From Gammaproteobacteria bacterium 53_120_T64 (GTDB lineage Bacteria; Pseudomonadota; Gammaproteobacteria; Pseudomonadales; Porticoccaceae): 64,000 bases of DNA. Below, in pieces: positions 29,923-45,254 of the stretch. Below the pieces are notes generated by a model. That model had not been told where the DNA came from. It was given only the letters and a program-made list of their open reading frames with translations, and searched no databases. The DNA lies in assembly GCA_002162815.1 (NCBI GenBank), contig MAAT01000039.1, positions 14,605-78,604 of the forward strand. Direction: 5' to 3'. Numbering within the stretch: the stretch's first letter is position 1; the number at the start of each line of letters is the position of its first letter. A program made the translations under genes and the position numbers.

Positions 29923-31029
29923 ATGAAAATTAAGGCCGCAGTATTACGCGGAGTAGATCAGCCTTTCGAGATCGAAGAGCTGGAACTCGCTCCACCAAAA
30001 GAAAATGAAGTGCTGGTAAAAACCACCGCCAGTGGCATTTGTCACAGTGACTACTCCGTCGCTCACGGCATCTTGAATTGCCCCTTTCCCATCGTCCTAG
30101 GCCATGAAGGCGCTGGTGTTGTCGAGGCCGTTGGCCCCGGCGTTACCGATTTGAAACCCGGTGACAAGGTGATTGCAGCGCTGACACCCAGCTGTGGCAA
30201 TTGCACCATGTGTAAGGAAGGCAAAGAGTTTATGTGCTCAGGCATGGGCAAACTGCTCACCGATTGCACCCAGCTCGACGGCACGACGCGTCATAAAACC
30301 GCTAGCGGTGAAGATGTTTTCGCCCTATGTGGCGTTGGTTCCTTCGGTGAATACATGGTGATGCCAGCGGGCTCAGCCATTAAAGTGCCGGAAGATACCC
30401 CCCTCGATATTACCTGCCTGATCGGTTGTGGTGTGACTACGGGTACTGGCGCGGCGCTGAATACCGCCAATGTCCAGCCCGGTGAAGCGACTGCGGTTAT
30501 CGGTTGTGGTGGTGTTGGCTTATCCATTATTCAGGGCTGCCGCATCGGTGGTTCAACCATCATTATTGCCATCGACCCGATGGAAGAGAAGCGCGAGCTG
30601 GCCCTGTCTCTGGGTGCGACTCACGCGATTAACCCCTTTGAGGAAGATGCCGCCGCTAAGGTTAAAGAGCTGACCGGTGGTCTGGGTGTGCACTATGCCT
30701 TTGAAGCACTGGGTCGCGTTGAAACCATGGCGCAAACCTGGGACATGATTCGTCCCACCGGTACCTGCGTGATTGTTGGTGTTGCATCGCTGGACCAGTC
30801 GGTGAAAATCCCCTCAGCCGGTCTATTGGCTGAGTATGAAATCCAGGGTTCTTGCTACGGATCATCGACACCGAAGAAAGATATTCCCCGTTTCGTTGAA
30901 CTGTATAAGAGCGGTGAGCTAAAGCTGGACGAAATGATTACCCAGCGTATTGGCCTGGAAGATATCGATCGTGCCTTTGATGAAATGGGTCGAGGCGAAG
31001 GTGCCCGCTCCGTGATCATGTACGGTTAA
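29923..31029 (+). CDS. zinc-dependent alcohol dehydrogenase (class III/NDMA-ADH-like), paralog 1
   Basis: GICHSD catalytic-zinc motif, structural-zinc Cys cluster (C…C..C…C), GxGxxG (VIGCGGVGL). Confidence 0.8.
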   Translation: MKIKAAVLRGVDQPFEIEELELAPPKENEVLVKTTASGICHSDYSVAHGILNCPFPIVLGHEGAGVVEAVGPGVTDLKPGDKVIAALTPSCGNCTMCKEGKEFMCSGMGKLLTDCTQLDGTTRHKTASGEDVFALCGVGSFGEYMVMPAGSAIKVPEDTPLDITCLIGCGVTTGTGAALNTANVQPGEATAVIGCGGVGLSIIQGCRIGGSTIIIAIDPMEEKRELALSLGATHAINPFEEDAAAKVKELTGGLGVHYAFEALGRVETMAQTWDMIRPTGTCVIVGVASLDQSVKIPSAGLLAEYEIQGSCYGSSTPKKDIPRFVELYKSGELKLDEMITQRIGLEDIDRAFDEMGRGEGARSVIMYG

Positions 31030-31089
31030 TAAACCCATTTACAGTTTAATTTCGAATGTCGGCCCAAGGGTTCGACGGGGAGAGAAATA

Positions 31090-32193
31090 ATGAAAACAAA
31101 AGCCGCAGTGCTTTATGAAATCGGTTCGCCTTTGGTTATTGAAGAGCTGGAATTGGAAGGCCCGAAAGAAAATGAAATTTTAGTGAACTACACCGCCAGT
31201 GGTATTTGCCACAGCGATTACTCCTTTGCTCATGGCGTACTGCCAACGCAATTGCCAGCCGTACTCGGTCACGAGGGCGCGGGTATCGTTGAAGAAGTCG
31301 GCGCCAATGTCACCAACGTAAAAGTTGGCGATCATGTTGTTGCCGCTCTGACTCCCGCCTGTGGTAAGTGTACTTTCTGCTTGGAGAGCAAGCCTTTTCT
31401 CTGTGCTGAAATGTCCAGTGTTATTTGGGAAGGTTGCCTGCTCGATGGCACCAAACGCTTTAAAAACAGCAAGGGCGAAGATGTTGGCCAGCTGGTATGT
31501 GTTGGCACCTTTTCTGAGCGTTCGGTTATTCCCGCCGGCATGGCGATTAAGGTGGATGACAAAGCCCCTCTCGACACCATTTGCTTGATCGGTTGTGGTG
31601 TGACCACCGGTGTTGGCGCAGCATTGAATACCGTCGACATTAAAGAGGGTGACAGCTGTGCTGTTATTGGCTGTGGTGGTGTTGGCTTGTCGATTATTCA
31701 AGGCTGTCGTATTGCCGGTGCCGGTCAGATCATTGCTATCGACCCGGTTGCTGAAAAGCGTGAGCTGGCACTGAGTATGGGTGCAACGATCGCTATCGAC
31801 CCCACTGATATCAATATTGTTAAAGAGATCCGTAAGGTCAGCAAGGGCGGTGTTCACTTTGCCTTTGAAGCACTCGGTTTGAAAGTGACTATCGAGCAAG
31901 CCTGGGCCATGCCTCGCGTTACCGGTACTGCAGTGATTGTTGGCGTGCCGAAAATGGATACCGAGCTTGAATTACCCGTATTAGGCTTCTTCGGTGAGAA
32001 GCACTTTAAGGGTTCTGCCTACGGTAGCTCCGTACCTTCAAAGGACATCCCCAAGTTTGTCGACCTGTATATGAAGGGCGAATTACAGCTTGACGAGATG
32101 ATCACCAAGCGCATTAAACTTGAAGACGTGAATACTGCCTTTGACGAAATGGGTCGTGGTGAAGGTGCGCGTTCAGTCATTATGCACGGCTAA
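31090..32193 (+). CDS. zinc-dependent alcohol dehydrogenase, paralog 2 (tandem duplicate)
   Basis: Same motifs and length (367 vs 368 aa) as its neighbour. Confidence 0.8.
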   Translation: MKTKAAVLYEIGSPLVIEELELEGPKENEILVNYTASGICHSDYSFAHGVLPTQLPAVLGHEGAGIVEEVGANVTNVKVGDHVVAALTPACGKCTFCLESKPFLCAEMSSVIWEGCLLDGTKRFKNSKGEDVGQLVCVGTFSERSVIPAGMAIKVDDKAPLDTICLIGCGVTTGVGAALNTVDIKEGDSCAVIGCGGVGLSIIQGCRIAGAGQIIAIDPVAEKRELALSMGATIAIDPTDINIVKEIRKVSKGGVHFAFEALGLKVTIEQAWAMPRVTGTAVIVGVPKMDTELELPVLGFFGEKHFKGSAYGSSVPSKDIPKFVDLYMKGELQLDEMITKRIKLEDVNTAFDEMGRGEGARSVIMHG

Positions 32194-32274
32194 CTAGTCA
32201 CTTTTTAAACGTAGAGAGACCTGCATATAGGCGTGAATAAGCCCTATGTGCGGGTTTTAAACAGGGAAAAAATA

Positions 32275-33129
32275 ATGAAAGAATTAACATCAAGCCCATT
32301 TGTTGATGGCTTTGTTTTTCTCGAAGGCCCGCGCTGGCACGACGGCAAGCTCTGGGTTTCTGACATGTTCGATAATACTGTGTTTACAATAAGCACTGAC
32401 GGCCAGCGCACGCCAATGGCGACTTTGCCCAATCGTCCCTCTGGCATTAACTTTATGCCCGATGGCTCAGTGGTTGTTGTTTCAATGGCTGATCGCAAGT
32501 TGATGACGCTGGCTGAAGATGGCTCTTTAAGCGAGTACGCTGATTTATCCGCAAATCTTGAATACGATATCAACGACTGTGTTTGTGCGCCGAATGGCAA
32601 TATTTATGTCGGTACTTTTGGTTACGACGTATTTGCTCATGACGAGCCCAAGCCTGCGACACTGACTCTGGTTAGAACTGACGGCACCATTCAAACGGTT
32701 GCCGAAGACATGCACTTCCCCAATGGTGCGTGTATTACCTCCGACGGAAAAACGCTGATCGTGGCGGAAACCTTCGTTGGTCGTATCACCGCATTTACCA
32801 TTGAAGCCGATGGTACTTTGTCCGGGCGTCGGGTCTTTGCCGACTTGGGCGCCTACACTCCCGACGGTATTTGTCTCGATCAAGAGGGTGCTGTCTGGGT
32901 GGCCGCTTTCGAAAATGGTGAGTTTCTTCGCGTGCTGGATGGCGGCGAGATCACCCATAAAATCGATACTGGTGATCGTCGTGCCGTCGCCTGTAACCTC
33001 GGTGGCGCCGATGGAAAAACACTGTATTGCCTGATTTATGACGGCGATTTGGACGATATTCCAGCGGGTAAGCGCAATGCAAAAATCGAAACAGTAACCG
33101 TTGACGTTGCCGGTGCAGCTTCACCCTAG
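32275..33129 (+). CDS. SMP-30/gluconolactonase/LRE-family protein (beta-propeller hydrolase)
   Basis: …LEGPRWHDGKLWVSD… six-bladed propeller signature. Start placed at ATG 32275. Confidence 0.65.
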   Translation: MKELTSSPFVDGFVFLEGPRWHDGKLWVSDMFDNTVFTISTDGQRTPMATLPNRPSGINFMPDGSVVVVSMADRKLMTLAEDGSLSEYADLSANLEYDINDCVCAPNGNIYVGTFGYDVFAHDEPKPATLTLVRTDGTIQTVAEDMHFPNGACITSDGKTLIVAETFVGRITAFTIEADGTLSGRRVFADLGAYTPDGICLDQEGAVWVAAFENGEFLRVLDGGEITHKIDTGDRRAVACNLGGADGKTLYCLIYDGDLDDIPAGKRNAKIETVTVDVAGAASP

Positions 33130-33187
33130 TTTTGTCATAAGCTAGGGTAGAGCGTTATCGCGATAACGCTGTTCGCGTCTGTATCAA

Positions 33188-33220
33188 AAGGCCGGAGGTA
33201 ATACCTCCGGCCTTTTTTTA
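33188..33220 (+). terminator. rho-independent terminator
   Basis: ggccggagg-taata-cctccggcc followed by T7. Confidence 0.85.
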
Positions 33221-33830
33221 TCTGGCGCATTCAAGCCTGATGATAATGCTTGGTTGTCATCCTTATTCTATGATGTTTTGAAAAATGGCGTGCCATTTGA
33301 TGAGATGTTTTCCTGCTTTGTATGAGGGCATCTAATCCTATTTACTGCACAGGCTGAGCCGATTACAGGTCATGGCCACGGCTGTTGTTAGGCTTTTAAT
33401 AGCACTGTATGGGCAGGAATAATCTTATGCTTAACGTGGTATTTAAAACACCGGTCACATTTGTAAGTGATGGTTGTCCCCAGTGCATGTCCGTAACGCA
33501 TACTTGGTTGACTCCTGCCCCCCTGATAGACAAATATACCTTATCTAAGGGTGCCGAGATATCAGCCGCCTTTAAAGTAGTGAGACACTTTCCATAATAG
33601 CCGTACGACGTCCTGACCACTACAGTCCGAGGCCGAAAGATAAACGGCCGTTGTCGAAAAATGCGCTAACCCGAGAATATGCTCCAGAACACGGGGTGTA
33701 TATAATCAGTAAGACTGGCTGCAGAAGAGTCGTAGCAGAGGCGCTAAGGTTTTGGCAAGGTTAAGGAATTCCCAGTGCTCTGAGCGCACTCATCAGGGTT
33801 TGAAGCAGCATAAATATAGGGAGGTAGACA

Positions 33831-34523
33831 ATGTTGGTGCTTTTGATGTCCGAGAGTTTGGATCCGTTTTATCAGAATATTTCTTCATTTCCGACGGCAT
33901 TTTTTACCTTTTTTCTACTTATCACCGTATTGTTTTGGCTCGTGGCTGTCCTGGGTTTTGTCGATATCGATATTTTAGATTTTGACAGCGCAGGGGGGAG
34001 TGGCGCTTTAACGGTCAATCAGGATGGTGCTTTATCAAGCCCGGAGGTCTTGGCCGGCTTGTTGTTGCGCTTTGGACTGCAAGGTGTGCCACTCACTGTC
34101 ATTATCTCTTTGGTCTCGCTTGTTGGCTGGTTGCTTTGCTATTACGCCGTGCATTTTTTTTTCGGGGCAATAGCGGGCGGCCTACTGCGTTTTATCGTCG
34201 GCTTTATCGTTTTACTTGTAGCGCTGTATCTGGCCGTTATCGGTACAGCCCTTCTGATCAAGCCACTGCGGCCTTTATTTAAAAGCGCTCAACAAGGCAC
34301 AGCCAAGTCTATGCTGGGTAAAACGGTGCTGGTGCGCACCTCGCGTGTCGATCGGGACTTTGGTGAGGCCACCTTAGAGGATGGTGGCGCAGGTCTTGTG
34401 CTGAAAATTAGAGCGGATGGTGAGAATACATTTTCGAAGAGTGAACGGGTTGTATTGCTGGAATACATCGAGGAAAAAAATGTGTACCGGGTTATTTCGG
34501 AAAAAGAATTCTTAGGTCAATAG
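33831..34523 (+). CDS. NfeD-like / YqiJ-like inner-membrane protein (N-terminal TM helices + C-terminal OB-fold)
   Basis: About four hydrophobic helices, then a beta-rich C-terminus (GKTVLVRTSRVD…GLVLKIRADGEN…ERVVLLEY). GGGAGG RBS. Immediately upstream of a flotillin gene, as in yqiJ-yqiK / nfeD-floT pairs. Confidence 0.6.
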   Translation: MLVLLMSESLDPFYQNISSFPTAFFTFFLLITVLFWLVAVLGFVDIDILDFDSAGGSGALTVNQDGALSSPEVLAGLLLRFGLQGVPLTVIISLVSLVGWLLCYYAVHFFFGAIAGGLLRFIVGFIVLLVALYLAVIGTALLIKPLRPLFKSAQQGTAKSMLGKTVLVRTSRVDRDFGEATLEDGGAGLVLKIRADGENTFSKSERVVLLEYIEEKNVYRVISEKEFLGQ

Positions 34524-34628
34524 TGTATTAGCAGGTCTATATCGATCTGCCAATGCCAAGCATGAATAGATAAAAAATTATTCAATCATTACGGCTAGAT
34601 TTGTTAATTAACACATGGAGTGAACACT

Positions 34629-36551
34629 ATGGCTGATTTATCAGTACTTATGCCCATCTTGACGAGCGTTGGCGTCTTCTTCGTTATTCTATTAGGGCTT
34701 GCGGCCTTATTTAAAGCCTTCTATATCAAGGTTGATCAGGGTACTGCGTTGATTGTTAATGATATGAGTTCACAACCCAAGGTGCATTTTACCGGTGCTT
34801 TGGTCTACCCGATAATTTACAGAAGGGAATTAATGAAGGTCTCCTTGATTACCCTGGAGGTGGATAGACGGGGTAAAGATGGTTTGATTTGCGCTGATAA
34901 TATGCGTGCCGATATAACAGTGGCCTTTTATCTGCGAGTTAATGAAACCGCAGAAGATGTCTTGAAAGTTGCAAAATCCCTGGGCGCAGGTCGAGCCTCG
35001 GATAAAGACGCGGTCAACCAACTTTTTAATGCTAAGTTTTCTGAGGCCTTGAAAACCGTGGGTAAGCAGATTGACTTTGTCAATTTATTTGAGAACCGCC
35101 AGGAGTTTCGCGAAAAAATTATTGAGGTGATTGGTGATGATCTCAACGGTTATATCTTGGAAGATGTGGCGATTGATTACCTGGAGCAAACGCCGAAGTC
35201 CTCTCTGGACCCGACAAATATACTTGACGCCGAGGGTATTAAAAAAATCACCGAATTAACGGCTAAGCAAAATGTTAACACCAATATTTTGGAGCGCAAT
35301 GAAGAGTTAGCGATCAAGAAAAAGGACGTTGAAACCGTTGAGGCGATGTTGGAATTAAAGCGCCAGCAGGCCGATGCCGAGGCCAAGCAAGAGAGAGAGG
35401 TTCTTACAATCAGGGCTCGGGAAGAGGCCGAAACGACAAAAGTTCAGGAGGAAGAGCGCCAGAGAGCGGAGGAAGCGACGATCCGGGTGAATCAGGAGTT
35501 ATCCGTCAAGACAGAGAATCAACAGCGTGAAATTGAAGTTGCCGCGCAAAACCGTCAACGCGCGGTTGCTATTGAAGAGGAAAAAGTAGTGCGAGCGCGT
35601 GATCTAGAAATTGTGTCTAGAGAGAAAGAGGTGGACCTACAGAAAATAGCCGCAGAGAAATCCCTGGAAATTGAAAGAAAAGAAATAGCCAATGTAATTC
35701 GCGAGCGTGTTGTCGTCGATAAGACAGTGGCTATCGAGGAAGAGAAAATTAATGAGGTGCGAGAGGTTTCCGAGGCGGATCGTGCCAAGCAGGTCAAAGT
35801 GCTCGCTGCTGAGGCTCTTGCCGAAGAGGACAAAGTCAAACAGGTAAAAGCTGCCGAAGCAGAGGAACAGGCTGCTAAACACAAGGCCAGTGAGGTGATT
35901 ACGCTGGCCCAGGCCGATTTGGAAGCGGCGGAAAAAGGCGCGGAAGCTAAGAAGAAGCTGGCAGAGGGGATTCAGGCCGAAGAGGCTGCAACGGGCTTAT
36001 CTGAGGCGAGGGTACAGGCCGCCAAGGCGGAGTCCCTTGAAAAAGAAGGCTTGGCCGAAGCCAGTGTTATTCAGGCCAAAGGTAATGCCGAAGCAGACGC
36101 ACTGTTACATACCGGCAAGGCACAAGCGGATGTCACGTTAGCCCAGTTTAAGGCTGAAGCGGATGGTTTGACCGACAAGTTTACGGCTATGAATAATATG
36201 GATGAGGACTCAAGGGCTCACGAAGAATTCCGTATGAGCCTCGAGACCGCGCTTAAAGAAGCACTGGCGGCAATAGAGGCGGGCAAGGATATTGCGAAGG
36301 AAAATGCTGAGGTACTAGCCGTTGCCCTGGCTACGGCGAAAATTGATATCGTCGGCGGCGAAGATCATTTCTTCAATAATTTTGGCAAGGCGCTTTCAAT
36401 GGGTAAAGCGATTGATGGCTTAGTAGAAAAAAGTGGCACCCTTTCAGCCGTTATAAACCGCGTCATTGAGGGCAAGCCCCTGCTTGATACAGAGCAAAGT
36501 GAAAGGCAAGGGACCGATAGGAAAGACGCAGAATGCTCCCCGGCAGAGTGA
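34629..36551 (+). CDS. flotillin / SPFH (band-7) family protein, YqiK/FloT-like
   Basis: N-terminal TM anchor, an SPFH domain (…ALIVNDMSSQ…VSLITLEVDRRGKDGLICADNMRADITVAFYLRVNE…), then a long Glu/Ala/Lys-rich coiled-coil flotillin tail. Confidence 0.8.
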   Translation: MADLSVLMPILTSVGVFFVILLGLAALFKAFYIKVDQGTALIVNDMSSQPKVHFTGALVYPIIYRRELMKVSLITLEVDRRGKDGLICADNMRADITVAFYLRVNETAEDVLKVAKSLGAGRASDKDAVNQLFNAKFSEALKTVGKQIDFVNLFENRQEFREKIIEVIGDDLNGYILEDVAIDYLEQTPKSSLDPTNILDAEGIKKITELTAKQNVNTNILERNEELAIKKKDVETVEAMLELKRQQADAEAKQEREVLTIRAREEAETTKVQEEERQRAEEATIRVNQELSVKTENQQREIEVAAQNRQRAVAIEEEKVVRARDLEIVSREKEVDLQKIAAEKSLEIERKEIANVIRERVVVDKTVAIEEEKINEVREVSEADRAKQVKVLAAEALAEEDKVKQVKAAEAEEQAAKHKASEVITLAQADLEAAEKGAEAKKKLAEGIQAEEAATGLSEARVQAAKAESLEKEGLAEASVIQAKGNAEADALLHTGKAQADVTLAQFKAEADGLTDKFTAMNNMDEDSRAHEEFRMSLETALKEALAAIEAGKDIAKENAEVLAVALATAKIDIVGGEDHFFNNFGKALSMGKAIDGLVEKSGTLSAVINRVIEGKPLLDTEQSERQGTDRKDAECSPAE

Positions 36552-36635
36552 TATGCCCCAAGTATAAAAAAGCCATTAGCTAAAGCTTATGGCTCAGGGC
36601 ATTAGACTCACATATTCCGTTGAAAGGAGAGCCGC

Positions 36636-39600
36636 ATGGTGGAGCAAAATCGCTCTGATAATATCGATAGCGAACTTGTCGCGAGTGCCGTTGCCGATGG
36701 CAGTGCGTATGAGGTCATTCGCAAACGCCTGATTGCACAGGGGAACAATCTCGATCAAAAAACGCGTCAGCTCAATGAGGCGCGTTTGGAGGAGTTCGGT
36801 CGTTCTGATATGAACGTACTGACTCGTGTCCGGGTGCGCACTGAAAATAATTGTGTGGCCAGAGATATTGTTCAAGTTGGTGGGCATTTATTATTTGGTT
36901 ACAACGTTTTCATTGGCCTCAAAAAAGAAACCAAGATTGAAGATGTTTTTGCACTTTTTGATGTCCGTGAAACGGATAGTACTTATGAGATGAAGCCGGT
37001 ATCCATGGCCGGTACTTTTCTAACTGACAGTGATTTTGTCAATGACTTTAATGAGCTGTACCGCTATTACAAGCACACCAAACTCGTCGAGTTGACAATA
37101 AATAGAGGGGTGCTGCTGGCGGGTTTTCAAATTGGTGAGCGGCTTGATGATCTTCGCGTTTTCCGCTGGTCACTATCGGCCGATGGTGGCGATGTTACAT
37201 ACATCGATAATCGTGGTGAGCGCAATATCGAGCTACCGCCGGCCTATGACTTTGAATGGCTGAGCACTAGCCACGATGACACGGTTCATGGTCGTCATGC
37301 CCATGTCAATATTCTCGATACGGTGTTTGTCGAAACGCTCAATGGCGAGCTCACCATCAAAGTTGAAAATAACACCGAAGACGGCCTGGGTATCTATCGC
37401 GAACCGGTCGAGGATAAAACCCAGTCGATTGATGACGCCGAAATCAGCTATGTGGCTGTCGGTAGTTTAATTTTATTGCAGGTCTGTCCCTATCGTGAAG
37501 AGCGTCCACGCTACCTGATTTATAACACCGTGACGCAAGAGGTGCTGCGTGTCGATGCTATTGGTCAGTCTTGCGTGCAATTACCGGAAGACCACGGGAT
37601 TATTTTCCCCGGTGGCTATTACCTGCAAAGCGGTGAATACAAAACTTTTGACCAGGAGTTCAATGGGCTAACGTTTAAACGTTCAATCCCTTCCCCTAAT
37701 GGCGAAGATATTCTCTATGTGTTTTACGACCCGCTAGAAGGTGCCCTCGGCTTATTCCCCTATAACATGATTGATAAGCAGCTAAATAAGCCTATTTTTG
37801 CCCATGGTTATGCCCTGGCTGAAAATGGTCAGCTAGTGATTTTTTCTGCGGAGGCCGAGCCGACGCGCATACATCCCATGCAAATTTGGCAAACGCCTTA
37901 TGTCAGCGATGAATTTGCCAGCCAGGTGCCTGACAGTCAGACCTTCCTGGGGCGTATTGGTAATGCTGAGCTCGTTCGCGGGGTGTCAGACCTCTATAGC
38001 ATTAGCCGTTTAATTGATAATCAATCGGTCACTTCACGCTTGTATGAGGAGCTTAATAACAACTCAAAAAAAATATTTGAGGACCATTACTGGATTGATA
38101 GAGAAGAAGTGCAAGGTGTTGCCACTGTCTTAAAGGACGTTTCAGCAACGGCTGAATTGGTGATCGATGAGTTTGAAAAGGTTGAGGGTATTCGTCAGCA
38201 GTCTGCTAAAACCCTGTTGCTAGCTGAGCGAGAGCAGCAGAATTTGATCCTCTCGATCCGCCCCGAAAACTGGGAAAGTGCTGAGGACTATGTCGATGCC
38301 CTTGGTAAGCTGCGCCGTCAACGGGGCCATTTAGCCACGGTTAAAGATCATCGCTATATGGATGTTGCCCGCATCGAACATCTGGACAAGGAATTACAGG
38401 ATGTCGATGCGTCCCTGAGTGTGCAAATCCTAGATTTTCTTTCCGATGAAAGGGCTCTTGAACCCTATCGCCATAAAATTGCAGCTTTAGATAAGGACCT
38501 TGCAAGGGCCGAGAGCATCGTCGAACTTTCTCCTATCATTGTCGCCATTGAGGGCGTCGCCTCTGGCTTGGACTTACTCTCTGAATTAATGACCAGTTTG
38601 AAAGTAGACGATGCGACCGTGCGCACGGGTATTATTGACACAATTTCCGAAGTCTATGCAAGGTTAAATCAAAGTAAGGCCAGCGCTAAGCATCGGCAAA
38701 AAAACCTCGGTTCTGAGGAAGCCATTGCCCAGTTTAGTGCACAATTTAAATTGTTCACTCAAAGTATTACCAATGCTCTGGGCTTGGCGAGCAGCCCAGA
38801 GCAATGTGATGAGCAGCTGTCACGGCTCCTGGTTCAACTTGAAGAGCTGGAAAGTCAGTTCACCGACTTTGACCAGTTTCTAGCCGACATCGTTGGCAAG
38901 CGCGAAGAGATTTACGAAGCTTTTGAAAGCCACAAACAACAATTGATGGATGAGCGTCAACGCAAGGCGCAATCTGTGGCCGATGCCGCCGATCGTATTT
39001 TATCAAGTATTAGCAAACGCTCGCTAAAATTTACCGATGCTGATGAATTAAATACCTACTTTGCGGCGGATGCCTTGGTGATGAAGGCTCGCGATTTGGT
39101 GGAACGCTTACGTGAGCTGGATAGTGCCGTTAAAGCGGACGATGTTGAGTCGCGTCATAAAGCCATTGTCGAGCAAGCCCTGCGCTCACTGCGAGATAAG
39201 TCGGATATCTTTGAGGATGGCGGCAAGATCATCAGGCTGGGGCCACGGCATAAGTTTTCAGTCAACAAGCAGGAACTGGATTTAACCATCATTCCACGGG
39301 ATGGTGAGCTGAGTCTTCATTTGACCGGCACCAATTATTACGAGCCGATTGTCCACCCCGAATTATTGGCTGCGCGAGATTATTGGCAAATGTCGCTGGA
39401 GTCTGAAACCCGGAAGGTCTACCGGGGAGAGTTTTTAGCCGCGTTGATCATGGACGCCGCCCAGGTACAGCAGCAGGGTTTATCGATTGATGCTCTCAAT
39501 ACTGCGTTGCTTGACGACGCGGAGTTAGAAAAACTGGTGAGGAATTTCGCTAGCCCACGCTACAAAGAGGGTTATGAAAAGGGCGTGCATGACCACGATG

Positions 39601-41993
39601 CAGCGCTACTTATTAAGCAATTAATGCCTGCGATCAAGCGTGCAGACCTACTACGGTATGACCCCTTAAGTCGAGGGTTGGCGCAAGTATTTTGGGCGAA
39701 TATTAAGGGTGGCGCGAAGAGAAACACCGCAGGCTTATCGAAGGTGGGTGGCGAGGGTTATATTGGCAGAGACTGGCTTCCCCACGATACTTGGCCCGAA
39801 CGCGCTCAGTCGGCAACACAGATGCAATCGGTGTTTGCCAGCGCCGAGGCACTTGAACTCTTAGCCGTGGAAGTGCGTCAGCAATTAACGGCCTTTATTG
39901 ACCAGCACCCGATCGCCGTTAATGTGCTGGATATCCGCCGCGCTGCGGATTATTTGGTGGCCGAGCTGGGTCGTGAACGCCTGGAGTTTATTGGTAGTAA
40001 ATACGCCCTTCAGCTTGTCGATCTGTTGAAAGGCTCTATGGACGACGATACTTGGCGTCGTTACCAGGCTTCGCTGCAGAAGATGCTGGGTTGGCCCGCC
40101 GAGCGCTGGCAACTAAGTACCGCCTGGTTCCAGGCCTTATTGTTTGATAGTGCCTCGAATGCGGCTGGTTTAGACCAACAGCGGGCCGGCCAATTGGCAC
40201 GATATATCCCGGAAGCGGTGGCGCTGATCAATGCCGATGAGCGCCTGGAGCGTCGCCTTACCGAGGTGGATGTTGAATTGACGGTGACGGGTTTATTGGG
40301 CGAACACGCTAGTATTGAAAAACGCACGCTAACTTTTGCCTTGGATGCCTACCTGCAACGTATGGAAGAGCACCGTTTTGAGGTGCTGCCTGGTTATAAA
40401 AACTACCTTCAGCTTCGGCAGGACTTTATTGTCGAGAAGCGTGGCGAGTTGCGCCTTGAGCAATTTAAGGCGCGCCCCTTAAGCTCCTTTGTGCGCAATC
40501 GTTTGATTAATGAATCTTACCTGCCCTTGATTGGCGATAACTTTGCCAAGCAAATGGGCACCGTGGGGGAGAATAAGCGCACCGACCTGATGGGCTTGCT
40601 GATGCTCATCTCCCCTCCGGGCTACGGTAAAACCACCCTCATGGAGTACGTCGCGAACCGGCTGGGCTTGATCTTTATGAAGATTAACTGCCCGTCACTG
40701 GGGCACGATGTCCTTTCTCTTGACCCCGAGCAGGCACCGAACGCGACGGCTCGTCAGGAGCTGGAAAAATTAAACCTGGCCTTGGAAATGGGTAATAACG
40801 TCATGCTTTACCTTGACGATATCCAGCATACCCACCCGGAGTTCCTGCAAAAATTCATCTCATTATGTGATGGTACGCGTCGTATCGAAGGTGTTTGGCG
40901 AGGGGAGCCCAAGACTTACGATATGCGCGGCCGCAAGTTTGCCGTCGTTATGGCGGGCAACCCCTATACCGAATCCGGCGAGTTGTTCAAAGTACCGGAT
41001 ATGCTGGCCAACCGAGCCGATATTTATAACCTGGGTGATATTCTCGGCGGTATGGATGAGCAGTTCTCCCTCAGTTATATCGAGAACGCACTGACCTCCC
41101 ACCCGGTATTGGCGCCATTGGCCCTTAGGGAAATGGATGACGTCTATCAGTTGATCGACTTGGCGAAGGGGCGGAGTGTTACAAGCAGTGAGTTAAGCCA
41201 TCAATACAGTGCCGGTGAAATTAACGAAATCACCGGCATCTTCAAAAAGTTGTTCGTTATTCAGGGCCTCGTATTGAAGATCAACCAACAATACATTAGC
41301 TCCGCCGCCCAGAATGACCAATATCGTATTGAACCGGCATTCAAGTTGCAGGGTAGTTATCGCAATATGAATAAGATGACGGAAAAGGTTTCCACGGTGA
41401 TGAACGACGCCGAGTTGATGCAAATGATTGTCGATCACTATTTAGGCGAAGCGCAACTATTGACGACCGGCGCGGAAGACAATTTATTGAAGCTGGCTGA
41501 ATTGCGGGGCAATATCAGCACGGAGGAGTCGACGCGCTGGGAACAGATTAAAGCAGATTTTCTGCGTAATAAAGCCATCGGTGGTGACGAAGCGGATGTC
41601 GGTGGCAAGGTGATAGCCCAGCTCGCGGATCTGGTGGCCGGTGTGCAGGGCTTGAGTACAGTGTCATCGCGAGCTGGCCCCGTGACACCCGATACGACAG
41701 CGGAGTTATCGGCGTCATCGGCGTCGCTAGTGGCTGTACTGGATAAGCTGACGGCCGTCGTTGCACAGGGCCGACCGCATGTAGAGGTGGTTAATCAGCC
41801 CGTGCCGGGTATGGATAAAATCATGAGCGTTCTCGCCAATACGATTATCTATAGTATTTTCCCCTTGGTGCGCAGTATGGATAAAAAGCTCGATATGGAC
41901 CTGCGCAGCCATGACCAAATGCAAGATATCTCCCAGCAGTTGCGTGACCTGGAGTCTGGGGTGGCTGGCAAGCCCGCGAAAACTACTGAGTAG
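36636..41993 (+). CDS. giant (1785 aa) uncharacterised protein with one AAA_5-like (dynein/midasin/MoxR-type) ATPase domain near the C-terminus
   Basis: Uninterrupted 5.36-kb ORF. AAAGGAGAG RBS. Walker A LISPPGYGKTT (about nt 40611-40637), Walker B MLYLDDIQ (about 40804-40826), sensor-1 AVVMAGNPY (about 40941-40967), and a RF-x-IY-type box PDMLANRADIYNLG (about 41000-41040). Only one P-loop is present in the whole protein. The N-terminal roughly 1250 aa show no recognisable family. Confidence 0.75.
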   Translation: MVEQNRSDNIDSELVASAVADGSAYEVIRKRLIAQGNNLDQKTRQLNEARLEEFGRSDMNVLTRVRVRTENNCVARDIVQVGGHLLFGYNVFIGLKKETKIEDVFALFDVRETDSTYEMKPVSMAGTFLTDSDFVNDFNELYRYYKHTKLVELTINRGVLLAGFQIGERLDDLRVFRWSLSADGGDVTYIDNRGERNIELPPAYDFEWLSTSHDDTVHGRHAHVNILDTVFVETLNGELTIKVENNTEDGLGIYREPVEDKTQSIDDAEISYVAVGSLILLQVCPYREERPRYLIYNTVTQEVLRVDAIGQSCVQLPEDHGIIFPGGYYLQSGEYKTFDQEFNGLTFKRSIPSPNGEDILYVFYDPLEGALGLFPYNMIDKQLNKPIFAHGYALAENGQLVIFSAEAEPTRIHPMQIWQTPYVSDEFASQVPDSQTFLGRIGNAELVRGVSDLYSISRLIDNQSVTSRLYEELNNNSKKIFEDHYWIDREEVQGVATVLKDVSATAELVIDEFEKVEGIRQQSAKTLLLAEREQQNLILSIRPENWESAEDYVDALGKLRRQRGHLATVKDHRYMDVARIEHLDKELQDVDASLSVQILDFLSDERALEPYRHKIAALDKDLARAESIVELSPIIVAIEGVASGLDLLSELMTSLKVDDATVRTGIIDTISEVYARLNQSKASAKHRQKNLGSEEAIAQFSAQFKLFTQSITNALGLASSPEQCDEQLSRLLVQLEELESQFTDFDQFLADIVGKREEIYEAFESHKQQLMDERQRKAQSVADAADRILSSISKRSLKFTDADELNTYFAADALVMKARDLVERLRELDSAVKADDVESRHKAIVEQALRSLRDKSDIFEDGGKIIRLGPRHKFSVNKQELDLTIIPRDGELSLHLTGTNYYEPIVHPELLAARDYWQMSLESETRKVYRGEFLAALIMDAAQVQQQGLSIDALNTALLDDAELEKLVRNFASPRYKEGYEKGVHDHDAALLIKQLMPAIKRADLLRYDPLSRGLAQVFWANIKGGAKRNTAGLSKVGGEGYIGRDWLPHDTWPERAQSATQMQSVFASAEALELLAVEVRQQLTAFIDQHPIAVNVLDIRRAADYLVAELGRERLEFIGSKYALQLVDLLKGSMDDDTWRRYQASLQKMLGWPAERWQLSTAWFQALLFDSASNAAGLDQQRAGQLARYIPEAVALINADERLERRLTEVDVELTVTGLLGEHASIEKRTLTFALDAYLQRMEEHRFEVLPGYKNYLQLRQDFIVEKRGELRLEQFKARPLSSFVRNRLINESYLPLIGDNFAKQMGTVGENKRTDLMGLLMLISPPGYGKTTLMEYVANRLGLIFMKINCPSLGHDVLSLDPEQAPNATARQELEKLNLALEMGNNVMLYLDDIQHTHPEFLQKFISLCDGTRRIEGVWRGEPKTYDMRGRKFAVVMAGNPYTESGELFKVPDMLANRADIYNLGDILGGMDEQFSLSYIENALTSHPVLAPLALREMDDVYQLIDLAKGRSVTSSELSHQYSAGEINEITGIFKKLFVIQGLVLKINQQYISSAAQNDQYRIEPAFKLQGSYRNMNKMTEKVSTVMNDAELMQMIVDHYLGEAQLLTTGAEDNLLKLAELRGNISTEESTRWEQIKADFLRNKAIGGDEADVGGKVIAQLADLVAGVQGLSTVSSRAGPVTPDTTAELSASSASLVAVLDKLTAVVAQGRPHVEVVNQPVPGMDKIMSVLANTIIYSIFPLVRSMDKKLDMDLRSHDQMQDISQQLRDLESGVAGKPAKTTE

Positions 41994-42319
41994 GTTCTGA
42001 CTCGTGCCTGTAGATCAAATGGCTGCCAACTATACTAGCCCGATGTGGCTGTAAACTTGGCCGGGTGAGAGGGCGCAATCCAGTGAGTGTTCTTTTAGGC
42101 AGCCATTCTTGGCCTGTATCCCTTCCGAGTGAATACCAGCCCTTGCCGGCCCTGGCGAATGGTCTCCGCGTCTCGTGAAAATGCGACCTGTTAACGGTGT
42201 GTATTGACGGTAGTCTGCTATAGTTCAAAAAAATTGGTTATACATCAGATTATTAATAGTATTTAACCTATTGATTTGTAGTCGTTTCTACACCCTGTAG
42301 AGTAAGAGTCGAGCCCGAT

Positions 42320-43972
42320 ATGCAAAATATAAGTCCCCAGGTACTGGAGTTTATTGGCCACGAGTACAAGTCGGTGCTGCAATCTGTCAACGGCTTAGTA
42401 CAGCGACTGACCATCGCTCACTTAGAAGAGCTTAATGAGCAGCTACTAGAGCTACGCGGTGCCGCACAGATGGCCCAGCTTGCGGGTATGAGTCGCTTGT
42501 TTGCCGAGATGGCGAGGGCTGTAGACGCGGTGATTAGTGGCGATAAGGCCATTGACGAGCTGCAACCCTTGCTTGACCAGGCCCTGCTGCTGGCGGACGG
42601 TTTGATCGCCAGTATTGTTGAGCAAAAATCTGAGAACCCCTGCGTGCTTCTTCCCGAAATGACGGCGCTGCGCCGCTTCAGGGGCGCGCCTCCGCTCTAT
42701 GAATACCACTTGCTGAAGGACATCACTTGGCCACCCTTTGCCAGCCTGACTCAAGATGAAGACATAATAGGCCCGCAAACGGAGGGGCTGAAACGCTGGC
42801 ACCACCTCTATCAACTGGGGCTACTGGATATTATCCGCAATAATAATCGCCAAAAAGCCTTGTTCAATTTATTTCGAGTCGCGGGGCGTTTACAAAAAGT
42901 CGCCATATCTGCGCGAGAAAGTGATTACTGGTGGGTGTTTGCGCTCACCATCAAAGGCTTTGCCGAAAAGAAATTGAGTTTGCAGCCAGAGCGTATTCGC
43001 CTACTTGCGGCGGTGGAGAAACAATTGCGTTTGTTGGTGGCAACGGATCAGGTGGGAGCGCGAAACCCCTACCCTGAAGGCCTATGGCGCGCCTTTGTTA
43101 GCTTGTTGGCGATGACGGATATGTCCAGTGACCCGCGCGCGAAGCAGATTGGTGTGCCCAAATTAATGTTTTCTGACTCGGCTATATCCTCGGTGCGCAA
43201 CGCCATCACTGGTGAGTTGGATGCCGATAAAAGCATCCTTGAATCCATGGCGCTGTCGGCGGCGACCTTGCGTACATTGCTGGATAACGGCCCGGAATCT
43301 GCCTCCCTGCTTAACGGCGATAAACTGCAAGAGTTGAGTGTGGGTTTTACGGCATTGGCTGAAGAATGTGAGCAGGCCGGTTTTCGAGGTTTGTCGCGCC
43401 AGTACCAGCAGTTTTGCTCACGCTTACAGAGTTGCTCCGATGGTGAGTTACCCGCTGAATTACTCGCAGAATTTACCGATGCGGTGCTCCATGTCGAGTG
43501 CGCACTGGCCGATTTCTATGGCAAAACACCGCAGGCAGAGCAAATTAAAGCCTGGGAAGCTCAACCCTTGATGAGCATCTTGCAAAAGAGTTTATTAAAG
43601 ACGGCACAGGTTGCCGTGGTGAATGAGACTGCGGCCCGACTGGGTGATATCAAACAACTGGTGGACAATGTCGCCTCGGGGTATGCCTCGGCTGAAGTCA
43701 CCCCCGAGCTCGAGCTAGCCTTTGCCGAAATCGAAGGTAGCGCCAGTATGCTCAATATGGTTCGTTTTGCGAGTCTGGCAGATCGTTGTTTAATGCTCGC
43801 AAAAGAAGTGCTCTTCACCGATACCAATGGCGATGATGGCAAGCCGATTGAGGTGTTTGCCGATACCATTGTCTGTCTAGAGTATTTCCTCGATGGTTGT
43901 ATGGTGGGTGATACTATCGATGAGAGCTCTCTCGATGTCGCCAATGAGTGTTTGTCGTCACTCGGTGCCTAA
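42320..43972 (+). CDS. hypothetical alpha-helical protein (550 aa)
   Basis: Clean ORF after a 326-bp spacer. Leu/Ala/Glu/Gln-rich. No catalytic motif recognised. Possibly a FimL/ChpA-N-terminus-like scaffold, but this is speculative. Confidence 0.55.
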   Translation: MQNISPQVLEFIGHEYKSVLQSVNGLVQRLTIAHLEELNEQLLELRGAAQMAQLAGMSRLFAEMARAVDAVISGDKAIDELQPLLDQALLLADGLIASIVEQKSENPCVLLPEMTALRRFRGAPPLYEYHLLKDITWPPFASLTQDEDIIGPQTEGLKRWHHLYQLGLLDIIRNNNRQKALFNLFRVAGRLQKVAISARESDYWWVFALTIKGFAEKKLSLQPERIRLLAAVEKQLRLLVATDQVGARNPYPEGLWRAFVSLLAMTDMSSDPRAKQIGVPKLMFSDSAISSVRNAITGELDADKSILESMALSAATLRTLLDNGPESASLLNGDKLQELSVGFTALAEECEQAGFRGLSRQYQQFCSRLQSCSDGELPAELLAEFTDAVLHVECALADFYGKTPQAEQIKAWEAQPLMSILQKSLLKTAQVAVVNETAARLGDIKQLVDNVASGYASAEVTPELELAFAEIEGSASMLNMVRFASLADRCLMLAKEVLFTDTNGDDGKPIEVFADTIVCLEYFLDGCMVGDTIDESSLDVANECLSSLGA

Positions 43973-44198
43973 CGCAATGTAGCTTCGCTCAGAGCCAGCA
44001 TGCGGTATCGCCTAGATCGGCCCCTTGGCTACCAGATAATTTTTCACTACACACCTAAATCTTAAAACCATCAAAATTTCTGCCGCGCCGGCACTGGGGC
44101 GCGCCGATATCAGTTAGAATTGTGCGCTTTACTTCCCTAACCGTATTACATAGATAACAGACTGGCTGAGTATTAGAGGCCATCGACAGAGGTGTTTT

Positions 44199-45254
44199 TT
44201 GGAATTTTTAAGTGAATATGGGCTTTTTCTTGCCAAATCATTAACCGTGGTGGTAGTTGTCGCTGTGCTTGCCGGCATACTCGCCAGCCTTGGCCAGCGG
44301 GGTAAAAGGCACGATAAGGGCCATATTGACGTGCTGTCATTTAACGACACGATTGCCGATATGAGCGATGCTTTAGCCGATGTCGTGGTGTCTGACGAAG
44401 CCCGTAAAGCGCTATTAAAAGCCGAGAAAAAAGAGAAGAAAGCTCAGCAGAAAGCCGACAAAAAGGCCTCCAAGAGTGGCGATGCTCCGGTCGCTAAAAA
44501 ACGTGTTTTTGTACTGGATTTTCACGGTGATATACGCGCCTCTGCGGTGGCAAGTTTCCGTGAAGAAATTACCACAGTACTCAGCCTCGCCAGTAGCCAT
44601 GATGAAATTGTGGTGCGTCTAGAAAGTGGCGGCGGCATGGTGCCGAGCTACGGTCTTGCCGCCAGCCAGCTCGATCGCATTACAAAGAAAAGTATTCCGC
44701 TCACCGTGTGTATCGATAAAGTCGCGGCCAGTGGCGGTTATATGATGGCCTGTGTGGCCGATCAAATCCTCGCTGCGCCCTTCGCGGTAATTGGCTCGAT
44801 TGGCGTGGTGGCACAGATCCCCAACGTACATCGTTTGTTAAAAAAGCACGATGTCGACATCGAGTTGATGACGGCCGGTAAATACAAACGCACCCTTACT
44901 ATGCTCGGTGAAAATACTGAGGAGGGACGAGAGAAGTTTCGCGAGGAATTAGAGGATACCCACGAGCTGTTTAAAACCTTTGTCGGCGAGCATCGCCCCG
45001 GCCTCGATGTTGAAGAGATAGCCACGGGTGAGGTTTGGTACGGCGCGCCTGCCGTTAAGAAGGGCTTGGTTGACGATACTAAAACCAGCGATGAGTACCT
45101 AATCGCTCAGCTCGACAGTGCCGATATTTATACGGTGGCCTACGTTCATAAAAAAACCCTACCGGAGAAGTTTGGCTTTGCTCTGGAGAGTAGCGGTGAC
45201 CGTTTTGTGATGCGCTGGGTGCGGCGTTTAATGGGGCCTGTTCCTCTGGCCTAA
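44199..45254 (+). CDS. sohB: S49 family inner-membrane peptidase SohB
   Basis: Collinear with E. coli SohB (MELLSEYGLFLAK…VLDFKG…LRLESPGGMV…DKVAASGGYMMACVAD…GENTEEGREKFREEL…). TTG start. Confidence 0.85.
   Translation: MEFLSEYGLFLAKSLTVVVVVAVLAGILASLGQRGKRHDKGHIDVLSFNDTIADMSDALADVVVSDEARKALLKAEKKEKKAQQKADKKASKSGDAPVAKKRVFVLDFHGDIRASAVASFREEITTVLSLASSHDEIVVRLESGGGMVPSYGLAASQLDRITKKSIPLTVCIDKVAASGGYMMACVADQILAAPFAVIGSIGVVAQIPNVHRLLKKHDVDIELMTAGKYKRTLTMLGENTEEGREKFREELEDTHELFKTFVGEHRPGLDVEEIATGEVWYGAPAVKKGLVDDTKTSDEYLIAQLDSADIYTVAYVHKKTLPEKFGFALESSGDRFVMRWVRRLMGPVPLA

Follow-up and report, generated by a model that had tools for sequence, protein, structure and literature searches.

Three genes, which we call p1, p2 and p3, follow each other on the plus strand of a 64,000-nucleotide (nt) stretch of DNA from Gammaproteobacteria bacterium 53_120_T64 (contig MAAT01000039.1), hereafter the window. 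Gene p1 (33831-34523) codes for 230 amino acids (aa), p2 (34629-36551) for 640 aa and p3 (36636-41993) for 1785 aa. A database protein from this bacterium, which appears to be related to Porticoccaceae and Cellvibrionales, is 100% identical to p3. We identify the locus with high confidence as a membrane module made up of a flotillin, a YqiJ-like protein and a giant ATPase. It is the abbreviated, three-gene form of a system that had already been predicted in the literature, and the evidence for this assignment lies in the relationships of the three proteins, in the architecture of the ATPase and in the conservation of the gene order over large phylogenetic distances.

The list of open reading frames (ORFs) placed the three genes on the same strand and at the same coordinates as an initial annotation made from the letters of the sequence alone. 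That annotation had described co-directional genes with strong ribosome-binding sites and short spacers, located behind a leader and an upstream terminator, and this description was accurate. The spacers are 105 bp long between p1 and p2 (34524-34628) and 84 bp between p2 and p3 (36552-36635), and the motifs GGAGG, GGAG and AGGAG are found 7-8 nt 5' of the starts of p1, p2 and p3, respectively. The ORF of p2 opens with a GTG at 34620, which would give 643 aa. The ATG at 34629 is the likely start, however, because GGAG lies 8 nt upstream of it and its product matches a 640-aa database entry. On the 5' side, the intrinsic terminator of an SMP-30/gluconolactonase-family gene (33186-33216, plus strand; a 14-bp stem with eight G-C pairs, then a T-run) marks the boundary of the unit. 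It is followed by a non-coding leader of 614 nt (33217-33830, plus strand), the presumed promoter and regulatory region.

Pfam, NCBIfam and PADLOC were silent on p1 and p2, as they were on the next gene downstream, p4, and the labels of these proteins were therefore tested by other routes. For p1, the silence of Pfam held also at E<=10 and included the NfeD and YqiJ_OB models, and BLAST found no similarity to E. coli YqiJ. A 21-sequence profile of the p1 family (profile A1) was aligned to E. coli YqiJ by hhalign with a probability of 89.8% and E=1.8e-6 over 131 columns, and this match spans both the transmembrane (TM) and the OB regions. Only a weak match was obtained to the OB-domain structure of YuaF (2k14, E=0.19), located in the correct, C-terminal OB region. 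The name given to p1 by NCBI, DUF1449, is the family name of YqiJ. About three hydrophobic segments lie between residues 16 and 147. We consider that p1 is a predicted inner-membrane protein of the YqiJ/YuaF type (DUF1449, NfeD2-like) with about three TM segments and a C-terminal OB-like domain, as the initial label NfeD/YqiJ-like had suggested.

The product of p2 starts with a hydrophobic helix, its single TM segment, and continues with an SPFH/band-7 domain, a long coiled coil rich in E, A and K, and a divergent C-terminus. BLASTP aligned it to E. coli YqiK with 29% identity over 449 aa (residues 8-451, E=9e-44). The TM and SPFH part alone was 30% identical to the Band_7-positive region of YqiK (E=6e-32), and the TM helix, the SPFH domain and the coiled coil together align to YqiK residues 10-439. 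E. coli YqiK itself matches Pfam Band_7 and Flot. The window's p2 gave no Band_7 match even at E<=10, and its Spirochaetota orthologue scored 49 bits on the same model, above the cut-off. The extreme C-terminus is regarded as divergent because the Pfam Flot C-terminal model was not matched. In the PDB, the p2 family profile found only a weak coiled-coil match to QmcA, and phmmer found no match for p2 and none for p3. Homologues of p2 are named YqiK by JGI. By its alignment to YqiK, p2 is a flotillin of the YqiK type, and the flotillin label it had been given stands.

No TM segment was predicted in p3, whereas p1 and p2 are membrane-anchored by prediction. Pfam recognized DUF3686 at aa 39-485 (E=8e-197), DUF7902 at aa 607-689 and one AAA module at aa ~1320-1445, for which AAA_5 (27.5 bits), AAA (29.4 bits) and AAA_22 (30.8 bits) each scored above cut-off. 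A single AAA_5-type module in a cytoplasmic protein had indeed been noticed in the initial annotation. Two AlphaFold2 models were built from a 48-sequence multi-phylum alignment, one for aa 1-960 and one for aa 901-1785, with predicted local distance difference test scores (pLDDT) of 82 and 80, respectively. An N-terminal helix (aa 24-54) is followed by 27 beta-strands in aa 60-420, enough for about seven four-stranded propeller blades. Foldseek searches of the PDB with this N-terminal part returned the propellers of WD40 proteins, prolyl-oligopeptidase, Vps18, Elp1 and IFT-A (E 1e-7 to 1e-4), and the predicted propeller, DUF3686, corresponds to positions 36750-38090 (plus strand). The next ~420 residues of chain (aa ~437-858, DUF7902 included; 37944-39209, plus strand) are modelled as very long helices of up to 58 residues each, as determined by DSSP. 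A small beta unit (aa 865-905), helices between aa 901 and ~1230, the AAA+ core and a helical C-terminal tail, modelled with low confidence in part, complete the chain. The possibility that a further, degenerate AAA domain precedes the active one was dropped: none was detected, and aa 901-1230 are almost all helical in the model.

The AAA+ module of p3 (aa ~1313-1560; 40572-41315, plus strand) is of the MoxR/midasin/dynein (AAA_5) type. Its nearest structural relatives are the MoxR-type activases CbbQ and NorQ, and the model places the core in the MoxR/midasin-like (AAA_5) clade. The Walker A motif GYGKTT (1329-1334), the Walker B residues D1394-D1395 and, for the sensor-1 and arginine positions, N1442, R1460 and R1576 were invariant in all 48 sequences. 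Since the catalytic motifs are invariant, the ATPase is presumably active. As a whole, p3 is modelled as a soluble protein combining a beta-propeller, a coiled coil and an AAA+ ATPase. It is no rarity: more than 5000 homologues were found in many phyla, and DUF3686 comprises 719 clusters at 50% identity. The domain is N-terminal in nearly all of the full-length members listed, which mostly measure 1600-1900 aa, and members also occur in Actinomycetota, in Bacteroidota and on Deinococcus and Streptomyces plasmids. Literature searches under DUF3686, PF12458, DUF7902 and IPR020958 found no papers.

For the gene neighbourhood, ORFs were clustered across genome loci encoding p3 relatives, the sample being the best 80 of 205. 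Loci cut at a contig end (two of the five without p2, five of the eight without p1) were left out of the informative counts. Of the 78 loci informative for p2, 75 have a p2-type gene immediately 5' of p3 in the same orientation, and a p1-type gene was found 5' of p2 in 72 of 75. Linkage of p3 to membrane-protein genes amounts to ~96% of the sampled loci and extends across eight phyla. The initial annotation had staked its proposal on the giant gene being linked to SPFH and NfeD genes in related genomes, and the linkage was found.

Because the 80-locus set was mostly composed of Gammaproteobacteria, other phyla were sampled as well. The order of a small gene, a ~700-aa gene and a giant gene was kept in loci from Planctomycetota, Acidobacteriota, Verrucomicrobiota, Spirochaetota and Lentisphaerota, where identity to the window copies was 23-29% for p1, 45-52% for p2 and 42-43% for p3. 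It was also present in a member of the Nannocystaceae (Myxococcota, L054), in Hymenobacter (Bacteroidota, L088) and on the Pseudomonas plasmid pQBR103 (L087). L082-L088, the seven loci taken from other phyla and plasmids, each had p1, p2 and p3 in this order on one strand. When p1, p2 and p3 from 68 loci were compared with their counterparts in the window, the divergences were correlated (r ~0.9), which indicates that they were inherited together, although much of this correlation is driven by shared phylogeny. Sequence identity follows taxonomy, as vertical inheritance predicts. Judged by these sequence comparisons, p1-p2-p3 is a real, deeply conserved and ancient three-gene unit.

The initial annotation had put the locus forward as a candidate undescribed system, and in this it was mistaken. 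Ravi, Anantharaman, Chen, Brenner, Datta, Aravind and Gennaro (mSystems 2024, PMC11237479; bioRxiv 2020.09.24.301986) describe an operon of this type, in which a CesT/Tir-PspA dyad is accompanied by YqiJ/YuaF, a band-7/coiled-coil/flotillin protein and a "novel AAA+ ATPase with beta-propeller and coiled-coil". According to these authors, a PLD hydrolase joins the operon in some Proteobacteria, and abbreviated operons contain flotillin, YqiJ/YuaF and the AAA+ ATPase alone. They predicted the system by comparative genomics only and proposed that it serves ATP-dependent membrane dynamics. Their Table S3 lists for Dokdonia donghaensis, in a row indexed by PspA ANH61663.1, an opposite-strand cHTH+protease followed by CesT_Tir, YqiJ-YuaF, Band-7+coiled-coil+flotillin and Betapropeller+coiled-coil+AAA-ATPase. 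Outside the 80-locus set, Hymenobacter sp. DG25B (L088) showed an opposite-strand LexA-family regulator and then a Tir chaperone, PspA, DUF1449, a 722-aa flotillin-like protein and a 'DNA repair ATPase' that shares 41% identity with p3 across 93% of its length. This layout is the published Bacteroidetes architecture, and the Hymenobacter ATPase serves here as a surrogate for that of Dokdonia. The neighbourhood is therefore already known as a prediction, and the window locus is its abbreviated form rather than a new discovery. Other reports touch on parts of it: PspA has been linked with SPFH and NfeD proteins, the ATPase being unmentioned (PMC9239133, PMC2636767), and the SPFH protein YdjI is needed for recruitment of PspA to the membrane in B. 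subtilis (PMC8581546). Searches for literature on YqiK with PspA (from 2022) and on SPFH/NfeD gene neighbourhoods with an ATPase found nothing relevant.

Further genes recur around the cassette in the 80 loci. Where present, DUF2170/YjfI (25 loci) and PspA/IM30 (26 loci) are directly 5' of p1 and co-directional. Genes for a rhomboid protein (20 loci), a PLD-like hydrolase (26 loci) and a zinc-ribbon protein (15 loci) are co-directional and 3' of p3 in nearly all cases. TelA was found in 15 loci, from Vibrionaceae and Neptuniibacter, also co-directional and in nearly all cases 3' of p3. The recurrent accessory genes PspA, PLD, rhomboid and TelA are, by their family assignments, membrane-shaping or lipid-acting, and they lend the neighbourhood a membrane-stress character. 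On the well-studied megaplasmid pQBR103 of P. fluorescens SBW25 (record 85112-97641), the cassette lies 3' of a whole yjfJKLMC-type PspA operon comprising PspA, rhomboid, DUF2491 (YjfK), DUF350 (YjfL), DUF1190 (YjfM) and a glutathionylspermidine-synthase family protein (YjfC). This arrangement unites the two PspA operon classes of Ravi et al. Two loci, L084 (2345-4018, Verrucomicrobiota) and L086 (2975-5159, Lentisphaerota), have an extra classical AAA protein (PF00004) of ~560-590 aa two genes 5' of p1. The gene that follows it codes for a HEAT-repeat protein in L084 and a TerB-like protein in L086.

The gene p4 (42320-43972), which follows p3 after a gap of 326 bp, had been considered a possible fourth member. 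It encodes a 550-aa soluble protein that matched nothing in Pfam (also at E<=10), NCBIfam or PADLOC, and phmmer against the PDB gave only chance matches to interleukin-34. Only the window's metagenome-assembled genome (MAG), its sister MAG 54_18_T64 and a single Porticoccaceae MAG are represented in its 90%-identity cluster. Of the 80 loci, L001, the closest relative, is the only one in which p4 comes after the giant gene, accompanied by sohB; the other 79 lack it at this position. We therefore attribute its presence to local synteny and not to membership of the unit. Transcription from p3 may continue into p4, as the plus strand of the gap (41994-42319) showed no terminator. The genes that flank the cassette within the window, namely alcohol dehydrogenases, a lactonase, SohB, a Na+/H+ exchanger and a sulfite reductase, are of housekeeping type. 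At 29923-32193, two tandem paralogous zinc-dependent alcohol dehydrogenases (368 and 367 aa) precede the SMP-30/gluconolactonase-family gene and are unrelated to the cassette. From the leader through p1 and p2 to halfway along p3 (computed for 32001-40000), the G+C content dips to 0.47-0.49, compared with 0.51-0.53 in the flanks. No mobile-element genes were found near this dip. When the region was compared by Megablast with all complete E. coli genomes, no match was obtained.

Comparison of the leader with that of L001, the relative at 84% identity, showed patchy conservation, with blocks near 33436-33476 and 33503-33535. One conserved block holds a TCAC-N8-GTGA inverted repeat and another a TTGACT hexamer resembling a -35 element; they may represent a putative operator and promoter. 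A sigma-54 promoter candidate judged by eye (TGGCGTGCCATTTGA, near 33290) was dropped because it is without the -12 GC. The small ORFs in the leader are not conserved, and the idea of a conserved leader peptide was given up for the 62-aa ORF at 33409-33597, which is disrupted by an 11-nt indel in L001. No Rfam family matched the leader, and an Rfam scan of 33000-44300 gave sub-threshold terminator-like matches only.

What could such a module do? Its most likely function is to build up or take apart, driven by ATP, scaffolds of flotillin (and PspA) when the envelope is under stress, and the module probably remodels or repairs the inner membrane. The initial annotation had suggested an ATP-driven machine coupled to flotillin. 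This remains the most reasonable reading of the protein identities, the domain architecture, the intact motifs and the linkage reported above; from it we infer the mechanism, including physical contact between p3 and p2, as well as the substrate and the stress role. The flotillin p2 would be anchored by its N-terminal helix, assisted by the YqiJ-like p1, and its oligomers would make up a large scaffold at the inner membrane, on the cytoplasmic side. p3 would dock on this scaffold via its propeller, its coiled coil or both and, acting as a MoxR-like ring, would hydrolyse ATP in order to build, dismantle or reshape it. In genomes with a PspA gene, next to the cassette or at another place, p3 may also act on PspA/ESCRT-III-like polymers during envelope or membrane stress. 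The action of Vps4 on ESCRT-III and of FtsH inside HflK/C cages would be parallels. We put forward remodelling of flotillin and PspA by p3 as the specific mechanism only tentatively, a little short of an even chance. For the overall explanation, identification and mechanism taken together, the balance tips slightly in its favor.

Several observations weigh against this explanation. Three giant DUF3686 genes were found without a flotillin or YqiJ neighbour: one in Moraxella boevrei beside clpB (L048), one in a Thiomargarita MAG beside gidA (L076) and one in 'Bacterium UASB14' among unrelated neighbours (L074). p3 is therefore not strictly dependent on an adjacent flotillin. The sample from which the linkage was calculated was, moreover, skewed to Gammaproteobacteria. 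The Walker B motif of p3 reads D-D, the usual form being D-E. Homologues of PspA, DUF2170/YjfI, PLD, rhomboid, the zinc-ribbon protein and TelA were absent from the 64-kb window in tblastn searches, and since there is no PspA gene here, the link to PspA rests on other genomes. Lastly, the support for all members of the system, whether from alignments or from models, is computational.

The similarity to MoxR-type activases could also be read in another way. The flotillin scaffold might only concentrate clients, and p3 might work as a MoxR-style chaperone that matures, inserts or extracts a third-party client complex, as NorQ and CbbQ do for NorB and Rubisco and FtsH for membrane proteins. CbbQ and NorQ are, after all, the structures nearest to the AAA+ module, a beta-propeller is a typical platform for binding clients or peptides, and SPFH cages around an AAA+ partner are established for HflK/C and FtsH. 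No VWA-domain adaptor or client gene, however, recurs among the conserved neighbours. For a VWA-domain partner, this covers the recurrent neighbours of the cassette in the 80 loci and, in L082-L086, the neighbours annotated by Pfam. The neighbours that do recur (PspA, PLD, rhomboid, TelA) are themselves membrane-shaping or lipid-acting. We consider a chaperone acting on a third-party client unlikely.

The compact cassette with its large multidomain proteins might instead be a conflict system, and a defence role had been mentioned as a possibility at the outset. The flotillin/YqiJ pair would then sense the perturbation of the membrane by a phage, and p3 would be the effector or switch of an abortive-infection-like response. 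TelA or TerB genes near some loci, copies on megaplasmids such as pQBR103 and the slight dip in G+C content over the cassette would fit. PADLOC-DB 2.0, however, gave only weak matches of the p3 coiled coil to two LmuB models (E=0.0016 and 0.022), and a nuclease, protease, toxin or NAD-consuming effector domain is absent. No homologues of p3 were found in phage genomes. The housekeeping flanks, without integrase or defence genes, speak against a defence island, and the way in which identity tracks taxonomy is that expected under vertical inheritance. Protection against phages is in our opinion a quite improbable function of this locus.

NCBI names p3 a 'DNA repair ATPase', the Pfam entry for DUF3686 reads 'ATPase involved in DNA repair' and p3 has weak RuvB_N and RuvB matches, but that p3 repairs DNA and stands next to a flotillin by accident is hardly credible, given that the RuvB similarity is generic to AAA+ proteins and ranks below CbbQ and NorQ, that p3 has no DNA-binding or nuclease domain, that the neighbourhoods examined hold no repair genes and that linkage to membrane proteins holds in ~96% of loci and extends over eight phyla. 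The naming of p3 and of DUF3686 proteins in general appears to be an inherited misnomer, supported neither by the domains nor by the gene context.

We return to the flotillin-coupled ATPase and to what it would mean. Flotillins are widespread in bacteria, and to our knowledge no dedicated ATPase has been demonstrated for their assemblies. With its high linkage over eight phyla, its PspA, PLD, rhomboid and TelA neighbours and its intact motifs, the cassette is an obvious candidate. In the boldest version, p3 would be a dedicated machine, the first of its kind, that remodels the flotillin (SPFH) cages of bacteria with ATP, and would work with PspA/ESCRT-III in membrane repair or vesiculation: a 'coat-like' arm of propeller and long helices would grip the cage, and the MoxR-like ring would disassemble or reshape it. 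This version is somewhat unlikely. If it is true, the machine is an ancient one that at least eight phyla of bacteria have kept; PMC11237479 only hints at such a role. The database name is misleading, and the cassette is a good experimental target. Tractable hosts are P. fluorescens SBW25 with plasmid pQBR103, Aquipseudomonas alcaligenes NBRC 14159, Cellvibrio, Psychrobacter and Vibrio nigripulchritudo.

Several known systems can be compared with the module. Members of the MoxR family such as CbbQ, NorQ and RavA have ~250-500 aa and work with a VWA partner, whereas p3 has 1785 aa, carries a propeller and long helices in addition to its ring module and is without a VWA neighbour. The likeness to Vps4 with ESCRT-III and PspA-Vipp1 polymers is conceptual, in that a ring ATPase would remodel a membrane-bound polymer; PspA genes lie directly 5' of the cassette in 26 of the 80 loci. 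HflK/C with FtsH, and prohibitin with the m-AAA protease, couple an SPFH scaffold to an AAA+ machine at the membrane, as is proposed here for p2 and p3. FtsH, however, is a membrane-embedded protease of the classical AAA clade, while p3 is predicted to be soluble, lacks a protease domain and falls in the MoxR/midasin-like clade, and its contact with the flotillin is a proposal. The NfeD2-flotillin pairs yqiJK of E. coli and yuaF-floT of B. subtilis resemble p1-p2 in that a multi-TM protein with an OB tail is followed by a flotillin with TM, SPFH and coiled-coil parts. Unlike in the window, no gene resembling the giant ATPase is located 3' of yqiK in E. coli. Compared with YqiJK, p1 and p2 form a distinct subfamily that is missed by the Pfam models YqiJ, Band_7 and Flot, and yet p2 is 45-52% conserved across phyla.

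The closest relative is the operon of Ravi et al., whose core consists of these three proteins in this order. Its full form includes the CesT/Tir-PspA dyad and the PLD hydrolase, and the window locus is without both. For the ATPase, the published account offers neither a Pfam name nor a structure, and neither an AAA+ clade nor statistics on linkage. The present analysis adds to that prediction the identity of the ATPase in Pfam (DUF3686/DUF7902), a structural model, the assignment of its AAA+ core to a clade, numbers for the linkage and a choice of tractable hosts.

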